Assembly (NCBI GenBank): GCA_903870275.1
Contig: CAIQCK010000121.1
Span: 192,461 to 256,460, forward strand
Length of the DNA stretch: 64,000 nucleotides
Direction of reading: 5' to 3'
Source of the DNA: an uncultured bacterium
Lineage (GTDB): Bacteria > Verrucomicrobiota > Verrucomicrobiia > CAIQCK01
Made by a program: the position numbers and the translations under genes. A model generated the notes under the pieces. That model saw only the letters and a program-made list of their open reading frames with translations, searched no databases and was not told the DNA's origin. Below are positions 1 through 61,418 of this stretch, in pieces; position 1 is the stretch's first letter; each line of letters begins with the position of its first letter.

Positions 1-5
1 GCCAG

Positions 6-11691: not shown

Positions 11692-11721
11692 GATTGCATC
11701 CCGCACCAAAGGAACATCACC

Positions 11722-13112: not shown

Positions 13113-13871
13113 CTACCGGGCCAGGGCCGCCACGTTTTGCCACGCCATCGCCAGTCCGACGGTGAGGACGAAGCCGGCGAAGGCTTTTCGGATGGCGTGT
13201 TCGGAGAGCCGGCCTTTGGCGGCGACGCCGCCCGCCATGCCGGCCGTGGCCGCGGCCAGAAACGCCAGCGCCAGCCACCAGTCGAACTGAACGTAGCGAA
13301 GCTGGCCCGCAAGCCCCGCCAGCGAGTTCAGCGCGATGACCGCCAGCGACGTGCCGGTGGCCTTCTTGATGTCCAGCCCTCCGAAGATTGTCAACGCCGG
13401 CACGATCAGGAATCCGCCGCCAATGCCCAGAAAACCGGTCAGCGCGCCGACAATCAGGCCGATGAGGGCGCAACGCGCCGGCCCCTGACTTACCGTGCGC
13501 GCCGCTTCGCGCCGTTCCCGGAGCAGCGTCACGCCCACGACAAGCATGATGGCGGAGAACACCGTCAGCAGCGCCGGCTGCGAGACCAGATGCGTCAGCC
13601 GCGCTCCTCCATACGCGCCGATCACGCCTGTCACGGCGAACAGCAGCGCCACGCGCGCGTCGAAATGCCCGCGGCGGTATTGCATGACGCTGCCGGCAAG
13701 GCTCGTGCCGCCGACCACGACGAGCGCCATCGCCACCGCCTCCGAAGCCGGAACGCGCGCCACATAAACCAGCACCGGCAGCGTGATCATCGTGCCGCCG
13801 CTGCCGAGCAGTCCAAGCGCCACGCCGATCAAGCTCGCCAGAAGCAACCCTGCTGTTATCTCGGTGTTCAT
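13113..13871 (-). CDS. TauE/SafE (TSUP, DUF81) family anion exporter.
   Basis: Length is 252 aa with about 8 TM helices. It has the duplicated 'GxGGG' halves (LLGSGGTMITLPVL and FLGIGGGFLIVPAL) typical of the TSUP family. Confidence 0.85.
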   Translation of the reverse strand: MNTEITAGLLLASLIGVALGLLGSGGTMITLPVLVYVARVPASEAVAMALVVVGGTSLAGSVMQYRRGHFDARVALLFAVTGVIGAYGGARLTHLVSQPALLTVFSAIMLVVGVTLLRERREAARTVSQGPARCALIGLIVGALTGFLGIGGGFLIVPALTIFGGLDIKKATGTSLAVIALNSLAGLAGQLRYVQFDWWLALAFLAAATAGMAGGVAAKGRLSEHAIRKAFAGFVLTVGLAMAWQNVAALAR

Positions 13872-14021
13872 TTAAGACAGCCTGTGAAGGCGGCGGCATC
13901 ATCGCAATCCAGCGTTGGCCTGGCAATAGTCATCAGTGCGATGATAACGGGCTTGGCAGGGCGCAAATACGCGGAACATAATGCGGCGCGCGAAAGGGTC
14001 GTCAACCGACAACGAAACAGA
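13872..14021. promoter_or_regulatory. Divergent promoter region between TauE (-) and P1 (+). It contains a 9-bp inverted repeat.
   Basis: 'catcatcgca' at 13898-13907 pairs with 'tgcgatgat' at 13938-13946, with a 30-nt spacer. Confidence 0.3.
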
Positions 14022-17000
14022 ATGATGAAGAGCAGATTATTGCTGAAGCCTTGGAAACAAATGGCCGTGTTGGCTTTGGCGTTTTTCGCGAGTGCCGGAG
14101 TTTCAAATGCCGGCGAAACAGCCGTCAACCCGGCTGTGCTCGCCAACGCGCGCGAAATTCAGGATGCCACCGGTGTTAAAGGTGGCCTTATCGTCCATGT
14201 CGGCTGCGGCGACGGCACGCTGACGGCGGCGCTGCGAACGAGCGACAGTTTTATTGTTCACGGCCTCGACGCCGATGCGGCAAACATCGCGGCGGCGCGG
14301 CAGCACATCCAGTCGCTCGGTCTTTACGGGCCGGTGTCGGTCGAGACGTGGAGCGGCAAGCGGCTGCCTTACGCCGACAACCTCGTCAACCTCGTCGTGG
14401 TCAGCGACGAATCATCGGTTGGCCGTAACGAAATTCTGCGCGTGCTGGCTCCCGGCGGCGCGGCGCTTATTGTCAATTCCCGGTCACCGGGGCCCGATTC
14501 CCGATGGGTGAAACCGCTTCCGGGCGACACGGATGAGTGGACCCATTTTCTTCACGACGCCGGCAACAACGCCGTCGCGCACGACGCGCGCGTGGCCGCG
14601 CCGCGGTCGCTGCAATGGAGCGCGCCGCCGCTCTGGCTGCGCAGCCACGAAACGCCGTCGGGCGTTGAGGCGATGGTTTGCGGCGGCGGGCGGTTGTTTT
14701 ACATCTTCGACGAAGGACTGGTGGGCATCACCGACCAGCGGCTGCCGGAGCGATGGGCGTTGCTCTGCCGCGACGCGTTCAACGGCAAACTGCTCTGGCG
14801 GCGGCCGATTGAGAAATGGGGCTGGCCGGAATGGGCGCCGGAGAAATTTTCCACCGATTGGACCACCATCGTTGGCGGACGCACGATCGTGCCCGATGAA
14901 AACCAGCGCCGGCTCGTGGTGGACGGCGACCGGCTTTACGCGACGCTGAGTTACCGCGCGCCGCTTTCCATCCTCGACGCGGCTACCGGCAAAACGCTCG
15001 CGACGGTCGCCGACACCGCGCCCGTGCGGCAGATCGTCGCGGCCGATGGCGTGGCCTTGGTTTATTCGCACGACGCCAAGCCCGAGGTGGGGCCGTTGAG
15101 GCCGAAAGGCAAGGGGATGGTCAACGACGCTCCGCAAGGCGCGTTGATCGCTGTGCGCGGCGCGACCGGCCAGGTGCTCTGGCGCAAGAGCATCCCTGCG
15201 CTGCGCGGGTTGTCGCTGGCGATTGACGGCGGGCGCGTGGTGTTTCAGCACGGCAAGACGCTGAGCGCCCTCGACTTGAAGACGGGCGAACAACGCTGGC
15301 AGGCCGAAATCGACGAGGCAAACGTCCGCACGCTGGTGGCCTGCGCCGGCGCGGTGGTTTTGCTGGGTCAAAAGGGCCTGGAGACGCGCGACGCTGCGAC
15401 AGGCAGTCTGCTGTGGCAAAAAGAAGTGCCGCTGGCTCGCGGCCTAGGCAGCGAGGGACTTTACATCGTCAACGGCGTCGTCTGGCCGGACATGATTTCG
15501 GTGGATGACGGCCAGCAGCCGGACCTCAAGAGCAAAAGCCCGAACGTGCTGGCCGTCGGATACGATCTGCGCACTGGTGAGGAGCGTAAACGCATCTTCG
15601 TCCAGAACCTTCGCAGCCCGGAGCATCACCACCGGTGTTACCGGAACAAGGCGACGGACCGGTTCCTCATCAGTTCGCTGGAAGGCACCGAGTTCCTCGA
15701 CTTGCGCGGCAGCGAGCACACGCAGAATAATTTCGTCCGCGGCGCGTGCCGGCTCGGCATGATGCCGTGCAACGGGATGCTCTACGCGCCGCCCGACCAG
15801 TGCTTCTGCGAGCCGGGCTCGAAGCTTCTGGGCTTCAAAGCGCTCGCGCCGGAGCGGCCGTTGGGCGCGGAGAATGAAGTTTCGGACGCGGAACGGCTCG
15901 AACGCGGTCCCGCCTACGGCGCGACAATCCAAAATCCAAAATCCAAAATCCAAAATTCAGAGGATTGGCCGACCTACCGTCATGACGCGGCGCGACACGG
16001 CTCGACGCCGGCCGCGGTCGCGACGCCGCTGGGCGAGACCTGGTGCGTAAAGCTGGGCGGCGGTCTGACACAACCGGTCGCGGCAGAGGACCGCGTTTAC
16101 GTCGCGTCGAGGGACACGCACGCGCTCCACGCGCTGGAGTTGAAGACGGGCAAGCCGCTGTGGACGTTTGTCGCGGGCGGGAGGATTGACTCGCCGCCGA
16201 CGCTTGTGAGCGGTCTGGTGTTGTTTGGCAGCGCCGACGGCCATGTCTATTGCCTGCGCGCTGCCGACGGCGCGCTGGCGTGGCGGTTTCTGGCCGCGCC
16301 GGGCGAGCGGCGCATCGTCGTGGACGACCAGATCGAATCGGCCTGGCCGGTCCACGGCAGCGTGTTGGAGCGCGACGGCGTCGTGTATTTCACTGCCGGC
16401 CGTTCGAGCTACCTCGACGGTGGCATCCGGTTCTACGCGCTTGAGCCGGCCACCGGCAAAGTGCTCCGCCAGGCGACGCTGGCCGGACCGTTCCCCGACG
16501 GCAAAACCACGCGCGACGTTTCCTTCTACATCAACGGCGCCAACAACGACGTGCTGGTCAGCGAAGGCGGTTCAATCTACATGCGCCAGAAGCGGCTGAC
16601 ACCGGCGCTCGCGGAGCAGACCGCCGGGGAACTTTCCAAAATGGGCGAGAAGGATGTGGGTCTGCACCTGTTCTCCACGGCCGGGCTGCTCGATGCGTCG
16701 TGGTATAACCGGACGTTCTGGATGTATTCGAAGCGCTGGCCCGGTTTTCAGCTTGCCAACCAGGCGCCCAAAAGCGGCCAACTGCTCGTCGTGGACGGCG
16801 AGCGCACCTTCGGCGTGCAGCCGTTCTATCGGCGGAATGTCCACAGCCCCATGTTTTTTCCGGCCAAGGAAGGTTACCTGCTCTTTGCCGACAGGAACGC
16901 AACCGAGCCGCAGATCGTCGGCGAGGAGGGTGCGCGCAAACCCGTGGTGTGGCTCCCGCAGTCCGACTACGAACGCGGCGGCGGCCGGGCGGTCGAGAAG

Positions 17001-17342
17001 CTCGACAATCCGGCGTTCGGCCTCGACAAAATGATCGGTTACACGCGCGCCGATCCGCCGTTGTGGACGCTGTGGTTGCCGGTGCGTGTTCGCGCGATGG
17101 TCAAGGCGGGCGACGCGCTTTTCGTCGCCGGCCCGCCTGATGTGCTCGACGCGGCCGATCCTTGTGCCGCGTTCGAGGGCCGCAAGGGCGCCAGCCTCGT
17201 CACCGTCTCCGCGGGCGACGGCAAGCAACTCGCCAAGCTCTCGCTGGACGCGCCGCCGGTTTTCGACGGCATGATCGCCGCCGCAGGGCGGTTGTTGATG
17301 GCACTCGAAAATGGAAATCTGATCTGTATTGCCAAAGAATGA
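14022..17342 (+). CDS. Paralog P1. Secreted multidomain protein: Sec signal, class-I SAM-MTase-fold domain, PQQ-like beta-propeller, conserved Cys motif, IQNPKSK linker, second PQQ-like beta-propeller, and a C-terminal region.
   Basis: The true start MMKSRLLLKPWKQMAVLALAFFASAGVSNA is in frame. The upstream 295 codons of the six-frame ORF are antisense to TauE. MTase motif I is 'LIVHVGCGDGTL'. The post-I acid is 'HGLDAD'. The motif II/III-like segment is 'LPYADNLVNLVVVSD'. PQQ-like blades include 'GKPLWTFVAGGRIDSPPTLVSGLVLFGSADGHVYCLRAADGALAWRF'. Confidence 0.8.
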   Translation: MMKSRLLLKPWKQMAVLALAFFASAGVSNAGETAVNPAVLANAREIQDATGVKGGLIVHVGCGDGTLTAALRTSDSFIVHGLDADAANIAAARQHIQSLGLYGPVSVETWSGKRLPYADNLVNLVVVSDESSVGRNEILRVLAPGGAALIVNSRSPGPDSRWVKPLPGDTDEWTHFLHDAGNNAVAHDARVAAPRSLQWSAPPLWLRSHETPSGVEAMVCGGGRLFYIFDEGLVGITDQRLPERWALLCRDAFNGKLLWRRPIEKWGWPEWAPEKFSTDWTTIVGGRTIVPDENQRRLVVDGDRLYATLSYRAPLSILDAATGKTLATVADTAPVRQIVAADGVALVYSHDAKPEVGPLRPKGKGMVNDAPQGALIAVRGATGQVLWRKSIPALRGLSLAIDGGRVVFQHGKTLSALDLKTGEQRWQAEIDEANVRTLVACAGAVVLLGQKGLETRDAATGSLLWQKEVPLARGLGSEGLYIVNGVVWPDMISVDDGQQPDLKSKSPNVLAVGYDLRTGEERKRIFVQNLRSPEHHHRCYRNKATDRFLISSLEGTEFLDLRGSEHTQNNFVRGACRLGMMPCNGMLYAPPDQCFCEPGSKLLGFKALAPERPLGAENEVSDAERLERGPAYGATIQNPKSKIQNSEDWPTYRHDAARHGSTPAAVATPLGETWCVKLGGGLTQPVAAEDRVYVASRDTHALHALELKTGKPLWTFVAGGRIDSPPTLVSGLVLFGSADGHVYCLRAADGALAWRFLAAPGERRIVVDDQIESAWPVHGSVLERDGVVYFTAGRSSYLDGGIRFYALEPATGKVLRQATLAGPFPDGKTTRDVSFYINGANNDVLVSEGGSIYMRQKRLTPALAEQTAGELSKMGEKDVGLHLFSTAGLLDASWYNRTFWMYSKRWPGFQLANQAPKSGQLLVVDGERTFGVQPFYRRNVHSPMFFPAKEGYLLFADRNATEPQIVGEEGARKPVVWLPQSDYERGGGRAVEKLDNPAFGLDKMIGYTRADPPLWTLWLPVRVRAMVKAGDALFVAGPPDVLDAADPCAAFEGRKGASLVTVSAGDGKQLAKLSLDAPPVFDGMIAAAGRLLMALENGNLICIAKE
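15926..15960 (+). repeat. In-frame heptanucleotide tandem repeat (aatccaa) of about 4.7 units inside P1. It encodes IQNPKSKIQNS.
   Basis: aatccaaaatccaaaatccaaaatccaaaattcag. Confidence 0.85.
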
Positions 17343-17349
17343 TCCAAGC

Positions 17350-20300
17350 ATGAACCGATTTGCGACCTGCACCCTCATCGCCGCGCTGGCTTGGGTTTCC
17401 GCCAACGCGGATCAACCGTCGGCGTCACAGATTCTCAAAGAGACCGGCATCCAAGGCGGCCTCGTCGTTCACGTCGGTTGCGGCGATGGCTCGTTGACGG
17501 CGGCATTGCGCGCGAACGACAGTTTTATTGTCCAGGGTCTCGATACCGACGCGAAGCATGTCGAGGCAGCGCGCAAGCACATCGCGTCGCTCGGCCTTTA
17601 CGGCAAGGTGACGGCGGAGCCGTGGGACGGCGGGCGGCTGCCTTACATCGAGAACTTCGTCAACCTCGTCGTGGTGAGCGAGGGGTGCCGTGTGGCGGAG
17701 GAGGAGATCATGCGCGTGCTTGCGCCCAACGGCGTGGCCATCGTCGGAAGCCGAAAGATCGTGAAGCCGCGGCCGAAGGAAATGGACGAGTGGACGCATT
17801 ACCTGCACGACCCCGGCAACAACGCCGTCGCGCATGATTCGCTGGTCGGCCCGCCGCGACAGTACCAGTGGATTGGCGGGCCACGCTGGTCGCGGCATCA
17901 CGACCACATGAGCAGTATCAGCGCAGTGGTCTCGGCCAATGGCCGGCTGTTCTACATCGTGGACGAAGGTCCGCGCGCCTCCATCCTGTTGCCGCCCCAA
18001 TGGTCGCTCGTCGCCCGCGATGCGTTCAACGGGACCATCCTCTGGACGCGTCCCATCCCGGAATGGAACACACAACTCTGGCCGCTCAAGAGCGGTCCCA
18101 ACCAGCTTCCGCGCAGGCTGGTGGCCGCCGGCGACCGCGTGTATGTCACGCTCGGCATTGACGCGCCGGTGAGCGAACTCGATGCAGCCACGGGCCGAAC
18201 GTTGCGCGCGTTCGAGGGCACGCAGGAAACCGACGAAATCCTGTTTTCCGACGGCATGCTGTTTCTGCTGGTGGCCGAAGCGCCGAACCAATGGAAGGAT
18301 TACCGGCCGAAGCACACCTACGTTTGGGACAACACAAACCGCGCGAACAAGGAATGGGCGTGGGACCGGCAGAGGCGTCACGTCATGGCTGTGGACGCCG
18401 GCAGCGGCCGCAAGCTCTGGAAATCCGAGCAACGCGTCGCGCCGCTGACGCTGGCGTTGGACACACAGCACGTGTTCTTCTACGACGGCGAGAAAACCGT
18501 CGCCTTGGACCGCAAGAGCGGCCAGCCGTTGTGGTCATCGGAACCGGTTCCTCACAAACAGCCGTTCCCGACCGGCTATGGGCCAACGCTGGTGGCGCAG
18601 GACGACGTGGTGCTGCTCTCCGTCGAGCGCTTGACCATGACCGCTTTCGCCGCAGCCACCGGCAAGAAGTTGTGGTCGGCCGAGCATCATCGCGGCGGCC
18701 ACGCTTCACCCGACGATTTGTTGGTCATTGACGGCCTCGTGTGGTCGGGCCGGATTGCGGATGGCAAGGACGATGGCGTTTTCACCGGTCGCGACCTGCG
18801 CACGGGCGAGGTCAAAAGCGAGTTCGCCTGCGACAACGTCAACTACTGGTTTCATCACCGCTGCTATCGCGCGAAGGCGACCGACCGGTTTATTCTGACC
18901 TCGCGCACGGGCACGGAGTTTGTGGATATCGCAGCGAAGCACTGGGACCTCAACCACTGGGTTCGCGGCGCGTGCCTCTACGGGGTGATGCCCGCCAACG
19001 GTCTGCTCTATGCGCCGCCGCATCCGTGCGCCTGCTACCTCGAATCGAAGCTGTCCGGTTTCAACGCACTCGCGCCGGCGCGCCCAACCATGGAACGTGG
19101 AGCGTCGAGCGTGGAGCGTCTCGAACGCGGCCCGGCCTTTGCGGAAATCCAAAACTCAAAAACCAAAATCCAAAATGCGGAAGATTGGCCCACCTACCGC
19201 AGCGACGCCGCCCGCAGCGGCTTTGCGAAAACGGATGTGCCGTCCGACCTCAAGCTTGCCTGGCAAGCGGACATCGGCGGCAAACTCAGCAGCGTCACGG
19301 TCGCGGACGGCCGGGTGTTCGTCGCGTCGGTGGACACGCACACGGTGCATGCGCTCGACGCGGCCACGGGCAAACCGGCGTGGACATTCACTGCCGGCGC
19401 ACGCGTGGATTCGCCGCCGACGATTTGGACGGGGCGCGTGCTCTTTGGCTCGGCCGATGGTTGGGTCTATTGTCTGCGCGCGGAGGACGGCGCGTTGGTG
19501 TGGCGGTTTCGCGCCGCGCCGGAAGAGCGGCGGATGATGGCCATTGAGCAGTTGGAATCGGTCTGGCCGGTTTCCGGCGCCGTGCTGGTGCGCGACGGTG
19601 TGGTGTTTTGCGTGGCCGGCCGCTCGGCGTTTCTCGACGGCGGCATGCGGCTGTTGCGGTTGGACGCGGCGACAGGCCGCGAATTATCCGAGACGGTCCT
19701 CAACGACCGCGACTTGTCCACTGGCGAGCCGCTGCAAAAATTCGTGCAACAACTCGACATGCCCACCGCCCTGCCGGATGTGCTTTCCTGCGACGGCCGC
19801 TCGGTATACATGCGCGCCCAGCGGTTTGACCTCAACGGCGCGCGGCAGGAGTTCGCGCCGATGGACCCCAAGGAACAAACGGGCGAGGGAGTGCATTTAT
19901 TCTCGCGCAGCGGCTTCCTCGACGACACCTGGTGGCACCGGTCCTTCTGGATGTATGGGCGGGGAGTGAAGTCCGGATACGGCGATTGGTTCAAGCCGGG
20001 AAACTACGCGCCGTCGGGCCGTTTGATGGTGTTCGACGATTTCGCGCTCTACAGCTTCGACCGCAAGCCGATGTCCATGTGCAACGCCTCGGTCTATGAT
20101 TACTATCTCTATGCCGCCGACAAACAGACCAAGGAGGAGGCCATCCAGCGCGTGACCGCCGCCAACGGCCGGATGAACGCTGCTTCGATCAAGAAGGTCG
20201 CATCCACTTCCGACTGGGCGCTGCGGAAAAAGTTCTCGCTCAGCGAACTCTCCGCCGCCGGCTTCAAGTGGGCGGAGGGCGATCTGCCGCTGCTGGCTCG

Positions 20301-21186
20301 CGGTATGGTGCTCGCCCGCAATACGGTTTTCATCGCCGGCCCACCGGACGTCGTGGACGAGGAAAAAGTCATTCAAAGCCCTGACGATCCGGCGATCAAG
20401 ATGAAGCAGGCCGAGCAGGTTGCCGCGCTCGAAGGACGGCGGGGTGCGCTGCTCTGGGCGTGTTCGGCCGCCGATGGCCGAAGACTCGCCGCATGGCAAC
20501 TCGACGCCGTGCCCGTGTTCGACGGCATGGCCGCGGCCCAGGGCAAACTGTTCTTTGCCACCATCGATGGCAAGGTCGTCTGCCTCGGTGGCAATGGGAC
20601 GCCGCTGAAACCCGCGCCCGACGCGAAACTCACGCCGCTGGACATCGGCGTGAAAACGACCGTGATCAACCTGCCCTCCAAGGCCGCCGACTTTGCCCGG
20701 CTCGACCAAGCGCGTGTTTTTGAGTCCGATATCGGTTACCGCGTCGCCACGGAGACGAAAAAGGTCGGTCTGGCGTTAAAAAAACTCGACGCGCCGTTGG
20801 ATGGCCGAGTGACGCTCAAGTGCAAGCTGCAGTTCACCAGTGTCGCGGGATTGCGCAACGGTTACCTCGCCTTCGGTGACGGCGCCGAGGAGGCGAACTT
20901 GGTGAAGTGCGGTCTGCGAGTGGCGATGAAGACCGCGGCGATCATTCAAGGGCCGCTCAGCAAGAACAAAGGCGCCACGACGCCGTATGCGGCAGACGCT
21001 GAGAAAGTTCACGAGCTGGTTGTAACCGTGGACCTCGCGTCGGGTAACGTTACCTTCCGAAGCGGTTCGGCAACCGTATCCGCCAAGCTGGCGCAGCCGA
21101 TGAAGCGCATCACTCACGTCGGCTACTGCACCAACAACGCCACGGTGGATTTTAGTCCGGTTGAAATCGGCGGCGCGGCGAAGTAG
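17350..21186 (+). CDS. Paralog P2. Secreted MTase-fold plus PQQ-like beta-propeller multidomain protein.
   Basis: The ATG at 17350 (MNRFATCTLIAALAWVSANA signal) lies 7 bp after the P1 stop. The TTG at 17329 reported by the ORF track is rejected. The segment 'GGLVVHVGCGDGSLTAAL...LPYIENFVNLVVVSEG' is collinear with P1, including 'HHRCYRAKATDRF...VRGACLYGVMPANGLLYAPPHPCACYLESKL' and 'IQNSKTKIQNAEDWPTYRSD'. Confidence 0.8.
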   Translation: MNRFATCTLIAALAWVSANADQPSASQILKETGIQGGLVVHVGCGDGSLTAALRANDSFIVQGLDTDAKHVEAARKHIASLGLYGKVTAEPWDGGRLPYIENFVNLVVVSEGCRVAEEEIMRVLAPNGVAIVGSRKIVKPRPKEMDEWTHYLHDPGNNAVAHDSLVGPPRQYQWIGGPRWSRHHDHMSSISAVVSANGRLFYIVDEGPRASILLPPQWSLVARDAFNGTILWTRPIPEWNTQLWPLKSGPNQLPRRLVAAGDRVYVTLGIDAPVSELDAATGRTLRAFEGTQETDEILFSDGMLFLLVAEAPNQWKDYRPKHTYVWDNTNRANKEWAWDRQRRHVMAVDAGSGRKLWKSEQRVAPLTLALDTQHVFFYDGEKTVALDRKSGQPLWSSEPVPHKQPFPTGYGPTLVAQDDVVLLSVERLTMTAFAAATGKKLWSAEHHRGGHASPDDLLVIDGLVWSGRIADGKDDGVFTGRDLRTGEVKSEFACDNVNYWFHHRCYRAKATDRFILTSRTGTEFVDIAAKHWDLNHWVRGACLYGVMPANGLLYAPPHPCACYLESKLSGFNALAPARPTMERGASSVERLERGPAFAEIQNSKTKIQNAEDWPTYRSDAARSGFAKTDVPSDLKLAWQADIGGKLSSVTVADGRVFVASVDTHTVHALDAATGKPAWTFTAGARVDSPPTIWTGRVLFGSADGWVYCLRAEDGALVWRFRAAPEERRMMAIEQLESVWPVSGAVLVRDGVVFCVAGRSAFLDGGMRLLRLDAATGRELSETVLNDRDLSTGEPLQKFVQQLDMPTALPDVLSCDGRSVYMRAQRFDLNGARQEFAPMDPKEQTGEGVHLFSRSGFLDDTWWHRSFWMYGRGVKSGYGDWFKPGNYAPSGRLMVFDDFALYSFDRKPMSMCNASVYDYYLYAADKQTKEEAIQRVTAANGRMNAASIKKVASTSDWALRKKFSLSELSAAGFKWAEGDLPLLARGMVLARNTVFIAGPPDVVDEEKVIQSPDDPAIKMKQAEQVAALEGRRGALLWACSAADGRRLAAWQLDAVPVFDGMAAAQGKLFFATIDGKVVCLGGNGTPLKPAPDAKLTPLDIGVKTTVINLPSKAADFARLDQARVFESDIGYRVATETKKVGLALKKLDAPLDGRVTLKCKLQFTSVAGLRNGYLAFGDGAEEANLVKCGLRVAMKTAAIIQGPLSKNKGATTPYAADAEKVHELVVTVDLASGNVTFRSGSATVSAKLAQPMKRITHVGYCTNNATVDFSPVEIGGAAK
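19146..19178 (+). repeat. Degenerate copy of the heptanucleotide repeat inside P2. It encodes IQNSKTKIQNA.
   Basis: aatccaa aactcaa aaaccaa aatccaa aatgcgg. Confidence 0.75.
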
Positions 21187-21195
21187 GCTTCATCC

Positions 21196-22287
21196 GTGCA
21201 AAAATGCCGCGCATATTCCGACTCGGTCCTCTTGGGGAGGCCACGAGTCTGGCCAGTCGTCGCAGTCGTTTTTTGCTGGACCGTGGTTTTTAACGCGTTC
21301 GCGTGTTCGGTGCCGGTGTTTCGCTACGCGCTCGACCGCTGGCCGGCGGAGAACTACGAGCTTCGCGTGGACCGTGCCGCCGCCGCCACGCCGGAGATGA
21401 CAACGCTGCTGGGGGCGCTCCGCACCAATTCGCTCGCAAACGTGACGGTTCAGACGTCGGCCATCGCGGGGCCGGCGACAGCGAAACTGGTTTTTCCCGA
21501 TCCGCCGGGCGGCGAAGTGTGGAGCGGACCATTGAGCGCCGCCAATTTGGAACTGGCGTTGGACTCGCCGGTCCGGCGCGAGATCGCCCGCCGCATTGTC
21601 CACGGCGAGTCGGCGGTGTGGGTGCTGGTCGAATCCGGCGACGCTGCGGCGGACGACAAAGTCGCAAGCGCGCTGGAGCGGCGGCTCAAACAATGGGTGT
21701 CGGCCGCCGCGCTGCCGGAGCAGGACCCCAACGATCCGACCAGCCAGATCGGCCCCGGTCCCGCGCTGGCGTTGCGGTTCTCGGTCCTGCGCTTGTCGCG
21801 GAAAGATCCGCGCGAGGCTGTAACGCTGGCGATGTTCGAGGCCAACAGCGACGAGATCAGGCGGCTCCGCACCGTGCCCATCGCGTTTCCGGTGTTCGGC
21901 CGCGGCCGCGTGCTCGCGGCGGTGCCGAAGGAAAACCTGACGGACGAGAGCATTGACGAAGTGTGCGCGTTCATCGTGGGCGCTTGTTCGTGCCAAGTGA
22001 AGGACTCGCGCACCGGCTGGGACTTGCTGCTGAGTTTCAACTGGGACGAGGAACTCGCGCGCGTGGAGGAGCAGCGGCAGAGTGCCGCGGTGGCGGCCCC
22101 GCCGGCGGCGCCGGCCAATCCGCCCGCCGCGCAGTCCGCGCTGAAACCGGAGACTGTCACGATTCGCGGCGGGTCCGCCGCCGGCGCGCCTGGCGCGATG
22201 AATGGGCGCGCGTGGTTGGCGGTCGCGCTGGTTCTCGCCTGCATGGGAGGAATTGCAGCGGTGGGATGGAGCAGGAGAAAACGATGA
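21196..22287 (+). CDS. Hypothetical membrane-anchored protein with an N-terminal hydrophobic segment and a C-terminal TM with basic tail. It is translationally coupled to modA.
   Basis: It starts 9 bp after the P2 stop. Its stop overlaps the modA start as ATGA (22284-22287). It reads 'VWPVVAVVFCWTVVFNAFA' ... 'AWLAVALVLACMGGIAAVGWSRRKR'. I recognise no known domain. Confidence 0.6.
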   Translation: MQKCRAYSDSVLLGRPRVWPVVAVVFCWTVVFNAFACSVPVFRYALDRWPAENYELRVDRAAAATPEMTTLLGALRTNSLANVTVQTSAIAGPATAKLVFPDPPGGEVWSGPLSAANLELALDSPVRREIARRIVHGESAVWVLVESGDAAADDKVASALERRLKQWVSAAALPEQDPNDPTSQIGPGPALALRFSVLRLSRKDPREAVTLAMFEANSDEIRRLRTVPIAFPVFGRGRVLAAVPKENLTDESIDEVCAFIVGACSCQVKDSRTGWDLLLSFNWDEELARVEEQRQSAAVAAPPAAPANPPAAQSALKPETVTIRGGSAAGAPGAMNGRAWLAVALVLACMGGIAAVGWSRRKR

Positions 22288-23822
22288 AACGAGCCGTAAC
22301 CATCATTGCCGTCCTTGGGGTGACATTGGGAATCATCGTGTGGTTTTACCGGCAGGCCGCGCCGTCGTCGGCGGGCCGGACGCTCACGGTGTATTGCGCC
22401 GCCGGCATCAAGAAACCCGTCGAAGCCATCGCCACGGCTTACCGCGACGAGTTCGGCGTCAACGCCGGGTTGCAATACGGTGGGACCGCTTCGTTGCTGA
22501 GCGCGATCCGAGTCGCGAAAACCGGCGACCTTTTCATCGCCGCCGACGCCACCGCCATCGCGGACGCGCGAAAGATGGGCCTGGTGCGCGAGGTGTTGCC
22601 GCTGGTGCGCCAGACGCCGGTAATCGCTGTGATGAAAGGCAACCCGAAAGGCATCCGCGCGCTCGACGATCTATTGCGGCCGGGCGTGCGGTTTGCGCTC
22701 GCCAACCCGGAGAGTGCCAGCATCAGCCGCGTGGTGAAGCGGCTGCTCGGCCCGCGCTGGGAAACGTTCAGCGCGCGCGCGGTGGTGCTCAAACCGACGG
22801 TGATGGACATTGCCAGCGACGTGACGCTCGGCGCGGTGGACGCGGCATTGGTGTGGGACTCGACCACGTCGCAGTTTGCCGCGCTGGAGATCGTGCCGGC
22901 GGCGGAGTTCGCCGGCGCTGCGGAAACGGCCAGCGTGGCGGTGCTCGCCGCGTGCGCACAGCCGGCAGCGGCGCTGCGGTTCGCGCGCTACTTGACCGCG
23001 CCGGAGAAAGGCGCGCCAATTTTTGCCGCGCAAGGTTTTCATCCTGCCGGCGGCGACAAGTGGAGCGGGAAACCGACGCTGGTGCTCTACAGCGGCGGCG
23101 TCAACCGGCCGGCGATACAGCAGACGCTGAAAGAGTTCGCCGACCGCGAGGGCGTGGACCTCACGACGGTGTTCAACGGTTGCGGCATCCTCTGCGCGAC
23201 GATGCGCGCGATGGCGAAGACACCGGGCGCGAACATTCCCGACGCCTACTACGCCTGCGACGTTTGTTTTGTGCCGCCCGTCGCCGATCTCTATCCGGAG
23301 GCGGTGGTCCTGACGGAAGCCGACATCATGCTCGCCGTGCCGAAGGGCAACCCGAAAAACCTCCACGCGTTGTTGGACCTCGCGCAGCCCGGCCTTAAGA
23401 TCGGCATCTGCAACTCCGAGCAGTCCACGCTCGGCTACATGACCAAAGGCATGCTCAAGGAGACCGGGCTTTACCCGTCGGTGATGAAGAACGTCTGTTC
23501 GCAGGTGCCGACTGCCGACCTGCTGATCAACCAACTCCGCACCGGTTCGCTCGATGCGGCCATCGTTTATGACGTGAACGCGAAACCCGTTGCGGCGTAT
23601 ATAGATACTATGCCGATCAAGCACGCCGGGGCCAAGGCCGCGCAGCCGTTCGCGGTGGCGGCGCATTCGCCGAACGCGCTGCTCGCGCACCGGCTGCTTG
23701 ATTTTCTGCGCGCCAACCGCGAGCGTTTTGAGAAGGCCGGTTTCCACTGGCGCGACGACGGGACCGCCATCGTGAGCAAGGACATTGTCGTGCCGGATTA
23801 CCTGAAGAAAGCCAATGACTGA
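22284..23822 (+). CDS. modA: Tandem-fused (two-domain) ModA-like molybdate/tungstate ABC transporter substrate-binding protein.
   Basis: Signal/TM 'MKRAVTIIAVLGVTLGIIVW'. The first half is 'TLTVYCAAGIKKPVEAIATAYRDEFGVNAGLQYGGTASLLSAIRVAKTGDLFIAAD'. The second half is 'TLVLYSGGVNRPAIQQTLKEFADREGVDLTTVFNGCGILCATMRAMAKTPGANIPDAYYACD'. Both fit the ModA/WtpA type-II periplasmic binding protein pattern. Confidence 0.8.
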   Translation: MKRAVTIIAVLGVTLGIIVWFYRQAAPSSAGRTLTVYCAAGIKKPVEAIATAYRDEFGVNAGLQYGGTASLLSAIRVAKTGDLFIAADATAIADARKMGLVREVLPLVRQTPVIAVMKGNPKGIRALDDLLRPGVRFALANPESASISRVVKRLLGPRWETFSARAVVLKPTVMDIASDVTLGAVDAALVWDSTTSQFAALEIVPAAEFAGAAETASVAVLAACAQPAAALRFARYLTAPEKGAPIFAAQGFHPAGGDKWSGKPTLVLYSGGVNRPAIQQTLKEFADREGVDLTTVFNGCGILCATMRAMAKTPGANIPDAYYACDVCFVPPVADLYPEAVVLTEADIMLAVPKGNPKNLHALLDLAQPGLKIGICNSEQSTLGYMTKGMLKETGLYPSVMKNVCSQVPTADLLINQLRTGSLDAAIVYDVNAKPVAAYIDTMPIKHAGAKAAQPFAVAAHSPNALLAHRLLDFLRANRERFEKAGFHWRDDGTAIVSKDIVVPDYLKKAND

Positions 23823-24609
23823 CCAGCATCGCGCCGGGCCGAACTGGCCCTTCTGGGTCACGATCGCCGTCATCACCGCCGCTTACCTCGCGTTGTTGCT
23901 CGGGATGCTGGCGGCCACGGCCACCTACAGCTCGCCGCATCATCTCCTCCACGCGCTCGGCTCGCGCGAAATCCAATACGCCACCGGCCTCAGCCTCGTC
24001 AGTTGCACCATCGCCGCGCTGCTGTCGCTCGTCGTCGCCGTGCCCGTCGGCTACCTGATGTCGCGCGGCCGGTTCGCCGGCAAGAACACGCTCGACACGC
24101 TGCTCGACGTGCCGATTGTCCTGCCGCCGATGGTGATCGGGTTGTGTTTGCTGATTTTGTTCCAGACGCCGATCGGACGGGCGATTGATCGCGTCGTGCC
24201 GTTCACCTACACGGTGTTCGGCGTGCTGCTGGCGCAGTTCACCGTCGCCGCGGCGTTCGCCGTGCGGCAGATGCGGACGACGTTCGATCATTTGCCGTCG
24301 CGGCCGGAGGACGTGGCAATGACGCTCGGTTGCTCGCGCGGCCGGGCCGTCTGGCTCGTCACGCTGCCCGCCGCCAAGCGCGGGATGTTCAGCGCCGCGA
24401 GCATCGCGTGGGCGCGGAGCCTCGGCGAGTTCGGGCCGATCCTGGTTTTCGCCGGCGCGACGCGGATGAAAACCGAGGTGCTGCCGACGACGGTCTGGCT
24501 GGAACTGAGCGTCGGCAACCTGGAGGCGGCGATTGCGGTGAGCCTGATGATGGTGGCGTTGGCAGTGGCGGTGCTGCTGGCGATGCGTGCGGTGGGGGAG
24601 AGGCCATAA
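23815..24609 (+). CDS. modB: ModB-like ABC transporter permease (molybdate/tungstate/sulfate CysTW family).
   Basis: Length is 264 aa with 6 TM helices. The EAA-like loop is 'AMTLGCSRGRAVWLVTLPAAKRG'. An 8-bp overlap with modA. Confidence 0.85.
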   Translation: MTDQHRAGPNWPFWVTIAVITAAYLALLLGMLAATATYSSPHHLLHALGSREIQYATGLSLVSCTIAALLSLVVAVPVGYLMSRGRFAGKNTLDTLLDVPIVLPPMVIGLCLLILFQTPIGRAIDRVVPFTYTVFGVLLAQFTVAAAFAVRQMRTTFDHLPSRPEDVAMTLGCSRGRAVWLVTLPAAKRGMFSAASIAWARSLGEFGPILVFAGATRMKTEVLPTTVWLELSVGNLEAAIAVSLMMVALAVAVLLAMRAVGERP

Positions 24610-24709
24610 AGAAAATGGATCCACGGATTACACGGATTGCACGGATGGCGGATTCGGAATCAGATTTTCTTTCCATGTCATCAGTGAAATCCGTGGATGC
24701 TTTCCCATC
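24610..24709. repeat. Intergenic inverted repeat plus a short tandem direct repeat between modB and modC.
   Basis: 'ggatccacggatt' pairs with the reverse complement 'aaatccgtggatgc'. The direct repeats are 'cacggatt acacggatt gcacggatgg cggattcgg'. Confidence 0.6.
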
Positions 24710-25387
24710 ATGATCGCCCTTGAACACATCGCCATTCGCGCCGGCGCGTTCGCGCTGAGCGACGTTTCCTTTACGGTGCCGGAAGCGGTTTACGGCGTGC
24801 TCATGGGGCCGACCGGCTGCGGCAAGACGACGCTGGTGGAAATCATCTGCGGCTTGCGAAAGCCCGAATCCGGCCGCGTGCTGGTGAACGGCCGCGACGT
24901 GACGCACGAGTCGTCCGGCAACCGCGGCGTCGGCTACGTGCCGCAGGACGGCGCGATGTTCCCGACGATGACCGTCCGCCAGCAACTCGGCTTTGCGCTG
25001 CGAATCCGGCGGCGGCCCGTGGAGGAAACGGCGGCGCGCGTCGCAGAGCTGGCGTCGCAACTCGGCATCGCGCACCTGCTCGACCGCAAGCCGCACGGTC
25101 TCTCCGGCGGCGAACGGCAGCGCGTGGCGTTGGGGCGGGCGCTGGCGGCGCGGCCGGCGGTGCTGCTGCTCGACGAGCCGCTCTCTGCGCTCGACGAAAA
25201 CATGCGCGGCGACATGCGCGACCTGCTCAAGCGTGTCCAACGCGAGCACGGCGTCTCCGTGCTTCACGTCACCCACGACCGCTCCGAGGCGCGGCAGGTG
25301 GCCGGTCTGTTGCTCGTGATGACGGAGGGTTGCGTGCGGCCGGCGGATTTGAATACACTGGGAGCGCCATGCACCTGCCAGCCTTGA
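24710..25387 (+). CDS. modC: ModC-like ABC transporter ATP-binding protein. There is no C-terminal TOBE/Mop domain.
   Basis: Walker A 'GPTGCGKTT', ABC signature 'LSGGERQRV', Walker B 'LLLDEPLSALD', H-loop 'HVTHD'. Confidence 0.85.
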   Translation: MIALEHIAIRAGAFALSDVSFTVPEAVYGVLMGPTGCGKTTLVEIICGLRKPESGRVLVNGRDVTHESSGNRGVGYVPQDGAMFPTMTVRQQLGFALRIRRRPVEETAARVAELASQLGIAHLLDRKPHGLSGGERQRVALGRALAARPAVLLLDEPLSALDENMRGDMRDLLKRVQREHGVSVLHVTHDRSEARQVAGLLLVMTEGCVRPADLNTLGAPCTCQP

Positions 25388-26118
25388 CCGACGACGAGCG
25401 CACCATCTACCAGTGGCAGATGTGGGTTCCGGGTTTGGGCGAGGAGGGCCAGCGGAAACTCAAAGGCGCGTCGGTGCTCATCTCCCGCGTCGGCGGCCTC
25501 GGCGGCGTGGTGGCTTACGAACTGGCCGCCGCGGGCGTCGGTCGGCTCGTGCTCGCCCACGCTGGCAACCTCAAGCCCGCCGACCTGAACCGCCAGCTTC
25601 TCCAGACCCACGACCACATCGGCAAACCGCGCATCGAGTCCATCGCGCGCCGGCTGCGCGATCTCAACCCGCGCCTCGACATCGTCGCGGTCTGCGAAAA
25701 CGTCACTGAGGAAAACGCCGGCAGTCTTGTGGCGCAGGCGGATGTGGTGGTGGACGCCGCGCCGCTCTTCGAGGAACGGTTCGCGCTGAACCGCGCCGCT
25801 GTCCGTCAGGGCAAACCGATGGTCGAGTGCTCCATGTATTCGATGGAAGCACACGTCACGACGATCCTGCCGGGCCGCACCGCGTGCCTGCAATGCCTCG
25901 TTCCCGAAAAACCCGCCGACTGGAAGCGCCAGTTCCCCGTCATCGGCGCGGTTTCCGGCACCGCCGGCTGCGTCGGCGCGGTCGAGGTCATCAAACTCCT
26001 TACCGGCATCGGCGACCCGCTCGCCGGCGCAATGCTGGTGATGGACCTCCGGACCATGAACTTCCGCCGCGTCAAAACCGCGCGCAGGCCCGATTGCCCC
26101 GTGTGTGCTGGAAGCTGA
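25369..26118 (+). CDS. moeB: ThiF/MoeB-family E1-like adenylyltransferase (molybdopterin-synthase adenylyltransferase-like).
   Basis: Nucleotide-binding 'VLISRVGGLGGVVAYELAAAGVGRLVLAHAGN' and a C-terminal zinc knuckle 'CLQC...DCPVCAG'. A 19-bp overlap with modC. Confidence 0.8.
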   Translation: MHLPALTDDERTIYQWQMWVPGLGEEGQRKLKGASVLISRVGGLGGVVAYELAAAGVGRLVLAHAGNLKPADLNRQLLQTHDHIGKPRIESIARRLRDLNPRLDIVAVCENVTEENAGSLVAQADVVVDAAPLFEERFALNRAAVRQGKPMVECSMYSMEAHVTTILPGRTACLQCLVPEKPADWKRQFPVIGAVSGTAGCVGAVEVIKLLTGIGDPLAGAMLVMDLRTMNFRRVKTARRPDCPVCAGS

Positions 26119-26167: not shown

Positions 26168-26782
26168 TCAGTTTGTCCCCAACGCATTTCCTGCCGCCTT
26201 ACTGCCGATTTCGCGCAGGGTTTTCCAGGCAGCGGAGTCTTGAGGACTGGGGGAAACCAGCAGGATCAAACAGGTCTGTTTTGACGCCGGCCGCGGCATC
26301 ACGAGGGCTTCCACATGGAGGGTGAGCTTGCGGCCGTCGGAAAAGGAGTCGAAGAAAACGACTTCGGCGGCGAAGCGTTTCTTTCCAGCCGGGCTGGGCG
26401 GCATCGCATTCACCACGGCCCTCATTTGTCCGGCGTCCGGCGAGAGTCCCTTGCCCCGGCCCACGGCGATGCTGAGTCCGCGGTAATACTTCTCAAGAAA
26501 ATCCTTGAGCTCCGTCGCGCCCAGTTCCGGCGCGCCGTCGGCCAGAATGGCCACCACATAGGTGAAATAGGTGCTGGTGCGGGTGTCGAACATTCCGGGA
26601 GCGAAACGGATTTCCTCGGAGCCGGTGAGCTTGATGTCCGGCGCAAATCCTGGAGGGATGGCCATTCCTTCGAAGCGCCAATCCGTGGGCTCTTTGAGAA
26701 TCGTGGGGCGGTCCGGCCCGGCGGCATTGAGCGGGACCTGCAAAGCCAGCAACAGGAGTGTGAAACCAAGGATTTGTTTCAT
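26168..26782 (-). CDS. Hypothetical secreted protein.
   Basis: Signal peptide MKQILGFTLLLLALQVPLNAAGP. It is coding-like in composition, with no recognisable domain. It is the last gene of the minus-strand operon. Confidence 0.55.
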   Translation of the reverse strand: MKQILGFTLLLLALQVPLNAAGPDRPTILKEPTDWRFEGMAIPPGFAPDIKLTGSEEIRFAPGMFDTRTSTYFTYVVAILADGAPELGATELKDFLEKYYRGLSIAVGRGKGLSPDAGQMRAVVNAMPPSPAGKKRFAAEVVFFDSFSDGRKLTLHVEALVMPRPASKQTCLILLVSPSPQDSAAWKTLREIGSKAAGNALGTN

Positions 26783-26792
26783 GGGAGTTTCT

Positions 26793-36900: not shown

Positions 36901-37067
36901 TTGGAGCCGCAGCCGAGATGAACACAGAGGCCGATCTTGACGCCCGCGACTTCGAGGATTTGGTCCGCTTGCGTTTTGGCGGGCGCAGCGTTGGCATTGA
37001 GAGTCCACGCGAGAATCAGTCCAATGACGGACAGCAGTGACAGGAATTTTTGAGTCATGCGCATCAT
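33921..37067 (-). CDS. Paralog P4 (1048 aa). Secreted MTase-fold (degenerate motif I) plus PQQ-like beta-propeller multidomain protein, with an expanded IQNxKSK linker.
   Basis: Signal MMRMTQKFLSLLSVIGLILAWTLNANA. MTase fold 'GLCVHLGCGSKNNPALTADLA...LVHGLALDD...LPYLRDLANLVVIED'. The linker 'IQNLKSK...IQNSTPQLPTSNSEIQNPKSKIQNSVDWPLYRHDGERSG' is followed by the C-terminal propeller 'GKPLWRATVGGRLDSPPTIHGDLCLIGSHDGWVYALRARDGQLAWR'. Confidence 0.8.
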   Translation of the reverse strand: MMRMTQKFLSLLSVIGLILAWTLNANAAPAKTQADQILEVAGVKIGLCVHLGCGSKNNPALTADLAADSNLLVHGLALDDAALDRARKAIETRGIAGKAMVEKMPLVHLPYLRDLANLVVIEDWPALSAQGLTTAEVERIVAPGGAICVRKAGRWTRSVKPRPPEMDDWPQPAHSADGNRVSADRVVKFPSGLRWQDGLPMNFNMWAACRGWVIANGRCFTLSTTELENLAPASFAKHKQEQYVTARDAFNGLPLWKLNCETLDNGQALNAFNLAPIVADDRRVYVYKKDRLVGLDAASGAVAVSCPVKYQTVRLLLSQNVLISSGWEAKEELKQFERGVIWAPWVNKTGAAGAIEAFDAASGAAKWSLPVPAQEMVTADGVVYLLLQSGNPPTGQRIVAVDLQTGRERWRVEHTQFEPATPMNLNCAGLGMLSVARPKAKTISILSAADGKVLWEIKPAGRFWTPLVDGLLWHESKKYDPRTGEVKGLLPVSMDSPMCTPAAVVGNYVTASRGCSYLELAPSPEGATFKGSATHISYAAARGACIEGATPALGMFFTGQNFCRCAPGQVPGFVAFGPSGDPPAAGEFEKPRPIEPGPAFGAKFQIPDSKSQISNRQSPTSEIQNLKSKAESARPAKQIQNSTPQLPTSNSEIQNPKSKIQNSVDWPLYRHDGERSGATQSAIPEKLKLLWQREAARPPTGPLAAAWQAQLTSCLSAPVVANGMVFAAATDTAQVVALNAATGKPLWRATVGGRLDSPPTIHGDLCLIGSHDGWVYALRARDGQLAWRARIAPWERRMVAFGAMESVWPVPGSVLVHEGVLYASAGRSSETDGGLAVCALDPASGRQLWAREVGPGPVRENDLLVARDGSIKLHHLQFDPKTGEGDVAAKGERDAPLEALMDGSWTRMGTRRSGGQKFGRATAEIFCWNGNTVFGYESKSRSCYAMERAKTAGAGKLAREDYAWRQAMPANHQAEAMSLCDNAVVVAGTVCDAGAVSGFLALLSTKDGRIVAEYPLEMPPVYDSLALAGQHVFLTLQNGKALCFGKSE
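35080..35270 (-). repeat. Expanded, interrupted array of the heptanucleotide repeat (ttggatt on +, aatccaa on -) inside P4.
   Basis: On the + strand: gaattttggattttagattttggattttggatttcgg ... ggaattttggatttgc ... ctttggattttagattttggatttcggatgttgg ... gagatttgagatttggaatctggaatttgaaattt. Confidence 0.8.
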
Positions 37068-61381: not shown

Positions 61382-61418
61382 ACGCCGTGACCGACAACAG
61401 TTGATGAGGAACGACAGA

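Follow-up and report, generated by a model that had tools for sequence, protein, structure and literature searches.

A putative two-layered operon joining beta-propeller proteins to an oxyanion-type ABC importer in an uncultured Verrucomicrobiota bacterium

Do seven tightly packed genes of an uncultured Verrucomicrobiota bacterium (GTDB lineage Verrucomicrobiia; CAIQCK01) form a single unit and, if so, what might this unit do? The genes lie in a 64,000-nucleotide stretch of DNA (GenBank assembly GCA_903870275.1, contig CAIQCK010000121.1, positions 192,461 to 256,460 of the forward strand), hereafter referred to as the window. They encode two secreted beta-propeller proteins (P1 and P2), a hypothetical membrane protein (hyp), the components of an ATP-binding cassette (ABC) importer and an E1-type activating enzyme of the ThiF/MoeB family. 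A previous reading, made from the sequence alone, had proposed that the block is co-transcribed and translationally coupled, and that the propeller proteins function together with molybdate/tungstate (Mo/W) uptake and molybdopterin-synthase activation or, alternatively, with another sulfur-carrier E1. In the interpretation that we favor, with a probability of about 0.5, the block is one transcription unit composed of two layers, a conserved Verrucomicrobiota core operon and an inserted P1-P2 pair, operating by the mechanism outlined below. The system is best viewed as a widespread, novel variant of an oxyanion ABC importer, whose thiol-rich periplasmic accessories are uncharacterised.

Translation of the block yields seven uninterrupted open reading frames (ORFs), all on the plus strand, and bears out the gaps and overlaps originally described (lengths in nucleotides, nt; names in quotation marks are those of the sequence-only reading):

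14022-17342, plus strand: P1, an uninterrupted ORF by translation of the coordinates
17350-21186, plus strand: P2, an uninterrupted ORF, 7-nt gap after P1
21196-22287, plus strand: hyp, an uninterrupted ORF, 9-nt gap after P2 if the start is the GTG at 21196
22284-23822, plus strand: tandem binding protein ("modA"), ATGA overlap with hyp
23815-24609, plus strand: permease ("modB"), 8-nt overlap with the binding-protein gene
24610-24709, no strand: inverted-repeat spacer of 100 nt at the permease/ATPase junction
24710-25387, plus strand: ATPase ("modC"), following the 100-nt spacer
25369-26118, plus strand: ThiF-like E1 ("moeB"), 19-nt overlap with the ATPase gene

Owing to the high G+C content of the window (60-67%), many spurious ORFs overlap these genes; the frames listed are singled out by their third-position G+C. 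Public gene calls place the start of hyp at 21283 (Joint Genome Institute, JGI) or at 21310 (European Nucleotide Archive, ENA). Either choice would cut off the signal peptide of the protein, and the latter would also remove an invariant cysteine. As the family alignment demands both the signal-peptide region and the cysteine, the true start is likely the GTG at 21196 or a TTG at 21232, making the gap to P2 9 or 45 nt. P2 and hyp share one reading frame, split by a TAG stop and 9 nt (21184-21198), so that read-through would fuse the two proteins; this is probably a coincidence.

Two features immediately upstream bear on the expression of the block:

13113..13871, minus strand: TauE/SafE-family anion permease (Pfam TauE, E 4.8e-48), divergent from the block
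13872..14021, plus strand: TauE-P1 intergenic region, with a promoter-like TTGGCA-N18-CATAAT at 13953-13982

The TTGGCA-N18-CATAAT sequence, agreeing at 10 of 12 positions, was the top promoter-like match of a consensus scan within 10-28 kb. The scan found neither a sigma-70-like site nor an intergenic terminator-like site on the plus strand inside the block. From hyp through ThiF the genes are codirectional, separated by short gaps or overlapping, and kept together across genomes. The 4-, 8- and 19-nt overlaps of the core genes recur in close relatives, indicating that the packing is conserved rather than a chance trait of the window, and the junction between a P-like gene and hyp is tight in at least 16 loci. 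Since two independent assemblies (L085 from ENA and L086 from JGI) reproduce the orders TauE-P1-P2-hyp and hyp...ThiF, misassembly is excluded. As judged from this organization, the block is very likely one transcription unit.

The two layers of this unit became apparent upon comparison with the four closest relatives of the hyp...ThiF segment, namely the P0002 contig (79% identity in hyp) and loci L001, L002 and L084, which together span 70-79% hyp identity. In all four, TauE on the minus strand is followed directly by hyp, binding protein, permease, ATPase and ThiF, and then by a gene on the opposite strand resembling P3, another P-family member of the window. Neither P1 nor P2 is found between TauE and hyp in any of them. 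The TauE-P1 spacer of the window aligns with the TauE-hyp spacer of L001, L002 and L084, including the segment CTTGGCA-N17/18-CATA(A/G)T. Homology on the TauE side ends just past the -10 hexamer, which places P1-P2 behind the core promoter. On the hyp side, similarity is back by the codons for the invariant CSVPVFR; the right breakpoint is not placed more finely because the signal-peptide codons differ among all relatives. For the same reason, the idea that the insertion replaced the hyp signal-peptide codons was rejected. In assembly GCA_016222825.1, the hyp operon (L084) and a 71% identical P2 orthologue (L088) reside on separate contigs, the latter in an array of four P paralogues. The simplest account of these comparisons is that P1-P2 entered between the core promoter and hyp once this lineage and that of P0002 had diverged. 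Thus, the specific linkage of P1 and P2 to the importer, missing in all four closest relatives, is a recent insertion. Co-transcription itself is consistent with the operon-like packing, the single conserved promoter-like site upstream and the lack of such sites inside, although P1 and P2 joined recently.

The permease/ATPase junction also departs from the ancestral layout. The inverted repeat noticed earlier in the 100-bp spacer is present, with arms at 24605-24645 and 24672-24712 that are 73% complementary. However, the spacer folds no better than shuffled sequences (z -1.8) and contains no T-run, ruling out an intrinsic terminator. At this position, the permease and ATPase genes of the P0002 contig and of L084 overlap by the 4 nt ATGA, so the spacer is not an original feature, and the window, L001 and L002 carry separate insertions at exactly this junction, each flanked by AT(G/A)A...ATGA. 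The elements of the window and of L001 are related, with CACGGA(T/A) repeats in common; the L001 copy has an extra nested palindrome. The element is found nowhere else in the window. By these comparisons the spacer is a small inserted inverted-repeat element that splits an ancestral ATGA overlap, and a role for its hairpin as a terminator or regulator was accordingly rejected. The element abolishes translational coupling at this one junction. Long GC-rich palindromic repeats (e.g. TGTAGCGCCGGCATCCCTGCCGGCG...) occupy intergenic spots of the relatives as well (L002 9780-9870, L084 9850-9960, L001 4830-4910), among them the TauE-hyp spacer and the permease/ATPase junction.

The protein encoded by hyp is, in this analysis, the founding member of a large uncharacterised family. 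It matches nothing in Pfam or NCBIfam, yet its homologues number more than 1182, nearly all of them in Verrucomicrobiota, and its family comprises 3499 clusters at 50% identity. When 1.8 billion representatives were searched with a profile, the best 150 matches were all close family members and provided no link to any known family. The family alignment reveals a signal peptide ending in A-x-A, with no lipobox, and a mature N-terminus that corresponds to the invariant C-(S/T)-(I/V)-PVFRYAL-(D/E)-RW. Further on come the FGRGR and CSC motifs, likewise invariant, and a membrane helix at the C-terminus. The AlphaFold model (mean predicted local distance difference test, pLDDT, 81) contains two thioredoxin-like domains, whose best Protein Data Bank (PDB) matches in Foldseek are the bb' domains of PDI/ERp57 and ResA. 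Domain fusions among longer family members were uninformative, the single fusion to FabH being probably an artefact.

The neighborhood of hyp was surveyed in species-representative genomes. The scan returned 565 relatives of hyp from Verrucomicrobiota, with a few in Planctomycetota, of which 80 loci were kept with up to 10 kb on each side. Neighbors were counted by tblastn with the window proteins, considering only loci with enough flank:

P2-like gene immediately upstream of hyp: 29/59 loci
tandem binding protein immediately downstream of hyp: 48/67 loci
permease near hyp: 22/59 loci
ATPase near hyp: 21/56 loci
ThiF near hyp: 16/48 loci

The full order P-hyp-binding protein-permease-ATPase-ThiF occurs in metagenome-assembled genomes of Chthoniobacterales, Limisphaerales, Verrucomicrobiales and Akkermansiaceae. 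A hyp gene is also present in isolates such as Brevifollis or Prosthecobacter (L029). Many loci contain hyp and the binding protein without ABC genes. With ABC genes and ThiF in about one third of the hyp loci and P genes in half, the parts of the system appear to be separable. All-against-all clustering of the ORFs of the 80 loci identified no other widely shared neighbor of hyp; sulfatases, DUF1501/PSCyt and similar families turned up in few loci. Sulfatases and DUF1501/PSCyt families are abundant in the Planctomycetota-Verrucomicrobiota-Chlamydiota (PVC) group and were hence treated as uninformative.

The tandem binding protein (512 residues) has an N-terminal membrane helix followed by two SBP_bac_11 stretches (Pfam 6e-67). 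Domain 1 (residues ~30-255) is ModA-like, and domain 2 (~259-512), a divergent member of SBP_bac_11, has four invariant cysteines in the motifs FNGCGxLC and YxACDxCFVPPV. In a PDB search with a profile built from 20 tandem binding proteins, the top matches were all ModA proteins (2e-17 to 1e-8) and covered domain 1 only; PEB3 and AcfC came next, and no sulfate-binding protein appeared at E <= 1e-3. Domain 2 alone matched nothing in the PDB. The cysteines of domain 2 are predicted to lie at the cleft because they align with the second anion-binding loop of ModA and the end of its strand 3. The permease (BPD_transp_1) is an ABC importer permease of the molybdate/sulfate clade; it scored 195.0 bits against the NifC-like porter model TIGR01581 (cut-off 210.3), 155.5 against modB TIGR02141 (182.6) and 125.7 against the sulfate permease model (240), falling short in all three. 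The ATPase (225 residues; ABC_tran 1.6e-35) ends without a C-terminal TOBE/regulatory domain. Its best match is WtpC (217 bits versus 440, aligned over 1-209 of 347), and it aligns with ModC TIGR02142 over 7-212 of 353 at 171.8 bits, below the cut-off of 285. Taken together, the ModA matches of the binding-protein profile and the permease scores favor the molybdate/tungstate class for the importer. The substrate itself stands at roughly even odds of being Mo/W, the main rival being a sulfur species.

The importer can be compared with several known systems. Like ModABC of E. coli (PDB 1AMF and 3R26; TIGR01256, TIGR02141, TIGR02142), it is a three-component type I ABC importer, domain 1 aligns full-length with ModA structures, and the permease falls in the molybdate/sulfate clade. 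Unlike ModABC, it has a doubled, membrane-anchored binding protein with a cysteine-lined domain 2 and altered ligand Ser/Tyr residues, an ATPase lacking the TOBE domain, and the hyp gene ahead. The NifC-like porter (TIGR01581, a hypothetical equivalog) and WtpABC provide the best models for the permease and the ATPase, respectively, both undershot (cut-offs 210 and 440); in contrast with the former, the block has no nif context, and what the NifC-like clade transports is likewise no more than a presumption. CysPTWA shares the binding-protein/permease superfamily and would suit the sulfur-related neighbors (rhodanese, TauE), but the window proteins score far weaker on its models than on Mo-type models.

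The last gene of the core encodes a 249-residue protein matching Pfam ThiF (PF00899) over its full length (profile 1-238 of 238; 7.6e-52, 176.3 bits versus 28.1). It contains two CxxC pairs (CLQC and CPVC), the Zn-binding signature expected within PF00899, and no rhodanese domain. Its distance to E. coli ThiF (5e-35) and MoeB (8e-31) is about equal, ThiF being slightly ahead as a PDB match, and it lacks a cysteine at the position of ThiF Cys184. MoeB models were missed throughout: TIGR02355 at 146.1 bits against 376.6, NF004281 at 171.4 against 266, and NF006444 at 202.2 against 449. No MoaD/ThiS-like ORF ending in GG is found in the 64-kb window; however, three related loci (L042, L044 and L076) have a ThiS/MoaD-family ORF ending in PPMSGG beside a divergently placed ThiF (PF02597, 31.8 bits versus 22.5). 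The search for a carrier gene that had been advocated thus came out negative in the window and positive in relatives, a result that fits either the MoeB reading or that of another sulfur-carrier E1. The MoaD-like gene of these loci is unaccompanied by moaE. The resemblance of the block to modABC and moeB holds at the family level only.

Compared with its characterized kin (MoeB, ThiF, HesA), the window E1 shares the full-length ThiF fold, the nucleotide-binding motif, the CxxC pairs and, in three related loci, the MoaD/ThiS partner. It differs in that it is not assignable by sequence to any one of MoeB, ThiF, UbaA or HesA, that its gene overlaps that of an ABC ATPase, and that no carrier gene accompanies it within 64 kb. 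HesA, a ThiF/MoeB-family protein needed for nitrogenase, sets a precedent for an enzyme of this family tied to Mo and S supply: it has been linked to S and Mo entry into the iron-molybdenum cofactor (FeMo-co), the requirement being suppressed by excess molybdate or cystine (PMC6361004).

In nine loci (L013, L015, L024, L033, L035, L037, L046, L059 and L061), the binding-protein gene is directly followed by one for a lipoprotein rhodanese. These lipoproteins, with a lipobox and then a sulfurtransferase-type CX4R loop, stand in for the permease-ATPase-ThiF part. Their best NCBIfam match is the rhodanese half of the rhodanese-MoeB family PRK08762, a family that is also the best for the window E1. 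A chemistry of thiols or of sulfur transfer is suggested alike by the cysteines in hyp and in domain 2, by TauE, by the rhodanese of the periplasm and by the paired E1 and MoaD.

These elements can be assembled into the following working mechanism. In the first layer, hyp would be a periplasmic protein with two thioredoxin-like domains and a C-terminal anchor, presenting an invariant cysteine at its mature N-terminus together with the CSC motif. Next to it would stand the N-terminally anchored tandem binding protein, with the predicted cleft of domain 2 lined by four invariant cysteines, then a ModB/NifC-type permease, the ATPase and a cytoplasmic ThiF/MoeB-type E1, whose MoaD-like substrate would be encoded adjacent to it in some lineages and elsewhere in the lineage of the window. 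The second layer would consist of P1-P2, secreted paralogues inserted between the promoter and hyp and hence now co-expressed. Domain 1 would capture a Mo/W-class oxyanion for uptake by the ABC importer; hyp, domain 2 and, in some lineages, the rhodanese lipoprotein might use thiol/sulfur-transfer chemistry to process or alter either the ligand or the P proteins; and the E1 would activate a MoaD-type sulfur carrier in the cytoplasm. Uptake could thereby be coupled to sulfur insertion, whether in molybdopterin or in a HesA-like Mo/S step.

Several findings weigh against this scheme. The promoter-like site is a consensus match only, and the Foldseek matches behind the thioredoxin-like call for hyp are weak (E >= 5e-3). 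No protein of the core reaches an NCBIfam equivalog cut-off, be it for ModA, ModB, ModC, WtpBC, CysTW or MoeB/ThiF, with the binding protein scoring 58.6 bits on the modA model TIGR01256 (cut-off 62.5). Of the oxyanion-binding residues of E. coli ModA (S12, S39, A125, V152 and Y170), three are changed in domain 1, which has G41, T68 and W191 at the positions of S12, S39 and Y170; the alignment with PDB structures agrees with this. The corresponding residues of domain 2 are G, Cys and Y. Ligand positions vary in solved ModAs too, with D and A in 9wgd. The four cysteines of domain 2 could simply form structural disulfides. No molybdenum cofactor (Moco) riboswitch, nor any other riboswitch, was detected by Rfam in the whole window at gathering thresholds, in the 13-27 kb interval at E <= 1, or in seven related loci. 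Likewise, no Moco biosynthesis genes (moaA/C/E, moeA) are present in the window, and none recur in related loci. Only about one hyp locus in three includes ABC genes and ThiF, and no more than one in two has a P gene. Finally, with four P-family genes in 64 kb, chance adjacency is likelier in this lineage.

A housekeeping Mo/W uptake system with a MoeB for molybdopterin synthesis, in line with the sequence-only reading, in which P1, P2 and hyp would be periplasmic Mo/W helpers, appears unlikely as an explanation. The ModA-like profile of domain 1, a permease nearest the NifC-like and ModB models, an ATPase nearest WtpC, and a MoeB-like E1 with CxxC pairs, no cysteine at the Cys184 position and a MoaD-like carrier beside it in three loci would all agree with it. 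It accounts poorly, however, for the failure of every component to reach an equivalog cut-off, for a doubled binding protein whose cysteine-lined second domain matches no solved ModA, and for an ATPase without a TOBE domain. Neither moaA/C/E, moeA nor a Moco riboswitch occurs in the window or related loci, the MoaD-like gene has no moaE alongside, and hyp with the binding protein is often found without ABC genes and ThiF, sometimes with a periplasmic rhodanese instead. Should the system nonetheless prove to be the Mo/W uptake route of the phylum, it would represent an unusual tethered, doubled and thiol-rich version of ModA. If it does not carry Mo/W, then the labels "modABC-moeB" that pipelines and readers attach to it misname a widespread system.

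An equally doubtful possibility is that the system serves sulfur acquisition. The substrates of the propellers would then be polythionate, thiosulfate or sulfated compounds, sulfane sulfur would be passed along by hyp, domain 2 and rhodanese, the ABC importer would take up thiosulfate or sulfate, and thiol biosynthesis would draw on a MoaD/CysO-type carrier loaded by the E1. CysPTWA does belong to the superfamily of the permease and the binding protein, a TauE/SafE gene (sulfite-exporter family) shares the promoter region in five related genomes, and both the invariant cysteines of hyp and domain 2 and the CX4R lipoprotein rhodaneses of the nine loci would find a use. So would the top Foldseek match of P2, tetrathionate hydrolase 6L8A (E 3e-16). 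Yet sulfate/thiosulfate models score far below Mo-type ones (30 bits versus a cut-off of 155 for the binding protein; 126 versus 240 for the permease), the binding-protein profile retrieved no sulfate-binding protein from the PDB at the threshold given above, and neither cysM, mec nor cysteine-synthesis genes are found near hyp loci. Moreover, the tetrathionate hydrolase match is no better than those to BamB and PQQ dehydrogenases.

The latter point emerges from the analysis of the P proteins themselves. P1 is a secreted protein combining a class I methyltransferase-like domain with PQQ_2-type beta-propellers (Pfam PQQ_2 9e-33, Methyltransf_25 1e-08). P1 and P2 are paralogues (43% identity by BLASTP), each with a signal peptide; P2 has the architecture of P1 plus a 200-residue C-terminal extension. 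The family is set apart by an invariant block, WFHHRCY...NHWVRGxCLYG...PPHxCxCY, which in P2 (HHRCY...C...HxCxC) occupies residues 500-568. An AlphaFold (AF2) model of P2 residues 1-1085 (pLDDT 77, predicted TM-score 0.82) matches eight-bladed propellers generically in Foldseek, the first-ranked hydrolase being practically equaled by BamB and PQQ dehydrogenases. At the sequence level, designed propellers and BamB lead, and tetrathionate hydrolase (E 7.5e-9) appears among generic blades. Because BamB and designed propellers score equally well or better, the identification of P2 as a tetrathionate hydrolase was rejected. Assignments to BamB (TIGR03300; 79 bits for P1/P2 against a cut-off of 285) and to PQQ alcohol dehydrogenase (TIGR03075; 45-59 bits against 480) fall far short as well. 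Thus, P1 and P2 share with BamB and with PQQ_2 eight-bladed propellers, 6L8A included, the fold and the blade repeats, but they are three times larger and have in addition the N-terminal methyltransferase-like domain and the HHRCY...HxCxC block.

The methyltransferase-like domain scores above the Methyltransf_25 cut-off of 27 bits in both proteins (36.1 and 33.1 bits), and motif I with its acidic residue (VHVGCGDG...GLD) is intact in P1 and P2. Across the clade of P proteins adjacent to hyp, however, the GxGxG motif or the acidic residue is degenerate in about one third of members, and the P-family alignment has no invariant columns before residue 94. S-adenosylmethionine would not be expected in the periplasm, where the signal peptides would place these proteins. 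The degenerate motifs and the secretion of the proteins make methyl transfer unlikely as a shared P function, and across the family the domain probably does not function as a methyltransferase.

Two more P-family members are encoded downstream of the block:

27730..32574, minus strand: P3, a rearranged P-family paralogue with Malectin and CBM96 modules (Pfam), convergent on the block
33921..37067, minus strand: P4, a P-family paralogue with 29-33% identity to P1/P2

P3 is a conserved neighbor of ThiF, occurring at the same position in the P0002 contig, L084 and L086. The carbohydrate-binding modules of P paralogues hint at contact with glycans. Orthologues of P2 (71-76% identity) are found in L081, L087 and L088. 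L081, which according to a neighbor-joining (NJ) tree also contains the P1 orthologue (L081_c), has an array of four P paralogues as in L088, beside lpxA/fabZ-lpxC. A Pirellulales homologue stands alone.

Does the association of P proteins with hyp have functional meaning? In the NJ tree, the P-like proteins adjacent to hyp form a monophyletic clade of their own, sister to the clade that includes the window P2; it follows that the P genes of the window are not orthologous to the one that usually accompanies hyp. The adjacency nonetheless recurs with other branches of the family. In L087, the 76% P2 orthologue closes a tandem array of four P genes and shares 4 nt with a hyp-family gene (hyp', 40% identity), which is followed by a LolCDE-like ABC pair, the tandem binding protein, permease, ATPase and ThiF. 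The pair (L087 12919-14860) consists of a LolC/MacB-type permease and a LolD-like ATPase, an exporter-type ABC set between hyp' and the binding protein in a cluster joined by 4-nt overlaps. Two P3-type genes stand ahead of an additional hyp copy in L040 and in L072. In 16 loci, the stop codon of the P gene lies 53-88 nt ahead of the codon for the invariant cysteine of hyp, a distance equal to the length of the signal peptide. The presence of P genes goes with that of ABC genes (odds ratio 6, p 0.012, uncorrected for phylogeny). That three P subfamilies hold the same position relative to hyp speaks for a functional partnership rather than chance, and argues that the P proteins and hyp work together in the periplasm.

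The sequence-only interpretation is thus partly supported: judging by their recurrent placement, P-family proteins do belong functionally with hyp and its importer. At the family level, adjacency of P genes to importer genes was confirmed in many Verrucomicrobiota, as the sequence-only reading had suggested should be checked; that the propellers work with the importer gains from this recurrence, but a Mo/W function is no more than plausible, with no Moco gene or riboswitch nearby. It is rather improbable that P1-P2 are mere passengers, an expanded mobile family that landed behind a convenient promoter. In favor of this are the lack of the pair in the four closest relatives, the unrelated surroundings of P2 orthologues (64-73% identity) in L081, L083 and L088, and the four P paralogues within 25 kb of each other in the window. 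Against it, members of three P subfamilies immediately precede hyp-family genes, in many cases with codons that overlap or abut, and P0123 (76%), the closest listed homologue with retrieved DNA context, is itself part of a hyp-binding protein-ABC-ThiF cluster.

A bolder extension of the two-layer interpretation, which we regard as speculative and improbable as it stands, is that the P propellers, hyp, the cysteine-lined domain 2 and the rhodanese or E1/MoaD make up an undescribed PVC-specific machine coupling capture of Mo/W-class oxyanions to thiol/sulfane-sulfur chemistry at the importer. Such a machine could hand over the metal in thiolated form, or along with sulfur, which is what HesA/NifQ-type steps are suspected of doing; type I ABC importers would thereby gain an accessory module of a new class. 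We found no description of this cluster in the literature. The scale is considerable, with the core cluster in at least 565 species-level genomes and some 3500 hyp-family clusters at 50% identity covered by no Pfam or NCBIfam model. As to operon evolution, a two-gene insertion exactly behind a conserved promoter has re-created an order seen elsewhere with other paralogues, and it offers a natural with/without comparison between close relatives.

The surroundings of the block vary among the relatives. The interval 10029-13101 contains an AraC-type regulator (minus strand), an MtaC-like corrinoid protein (11008-11691) and an MtaB homologue (11722-13101); the latter matches Pfam MtaB at E 9e-169, under the NCBIfam cut-off for methanogens, here in a verrucomicrobial setting. 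The AraC, MtaC and MtaB genes are common to the window and the P0002 contig, and are not found in L084 or L002. The P0002 contig also has the giant repeat protein of the window, a plus-strand ORF of more than 3300 residues (3-9995), open at the window edge and containing PATR autotransporter-type repeats; equivalents of this ORF flank the locus in the P0002 contig and L084. Between ThiF and P3, two small minus-strand genes (26168-27647) show no family match, apart from a faint match of one to DUF4407. They are present in L086 and missing in the P0002 contig and L084, where P3 directly follows ThiF. A protein with FAD_oxidored and Golvesin_C domains is encoded at 61281-63545 (plus strand), and the same architecture is found directly upstream of hyp in L036 (7812-9848, minus strand). 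Finally, two full-length matches to the Rfam Acido-Lenti-1 small RNA (56.5 and 51.7 bits, gathering score 37) lie about 100 nt apart on opposite strands, at 52390-52435 (minus) and 52538-52583 (plus).

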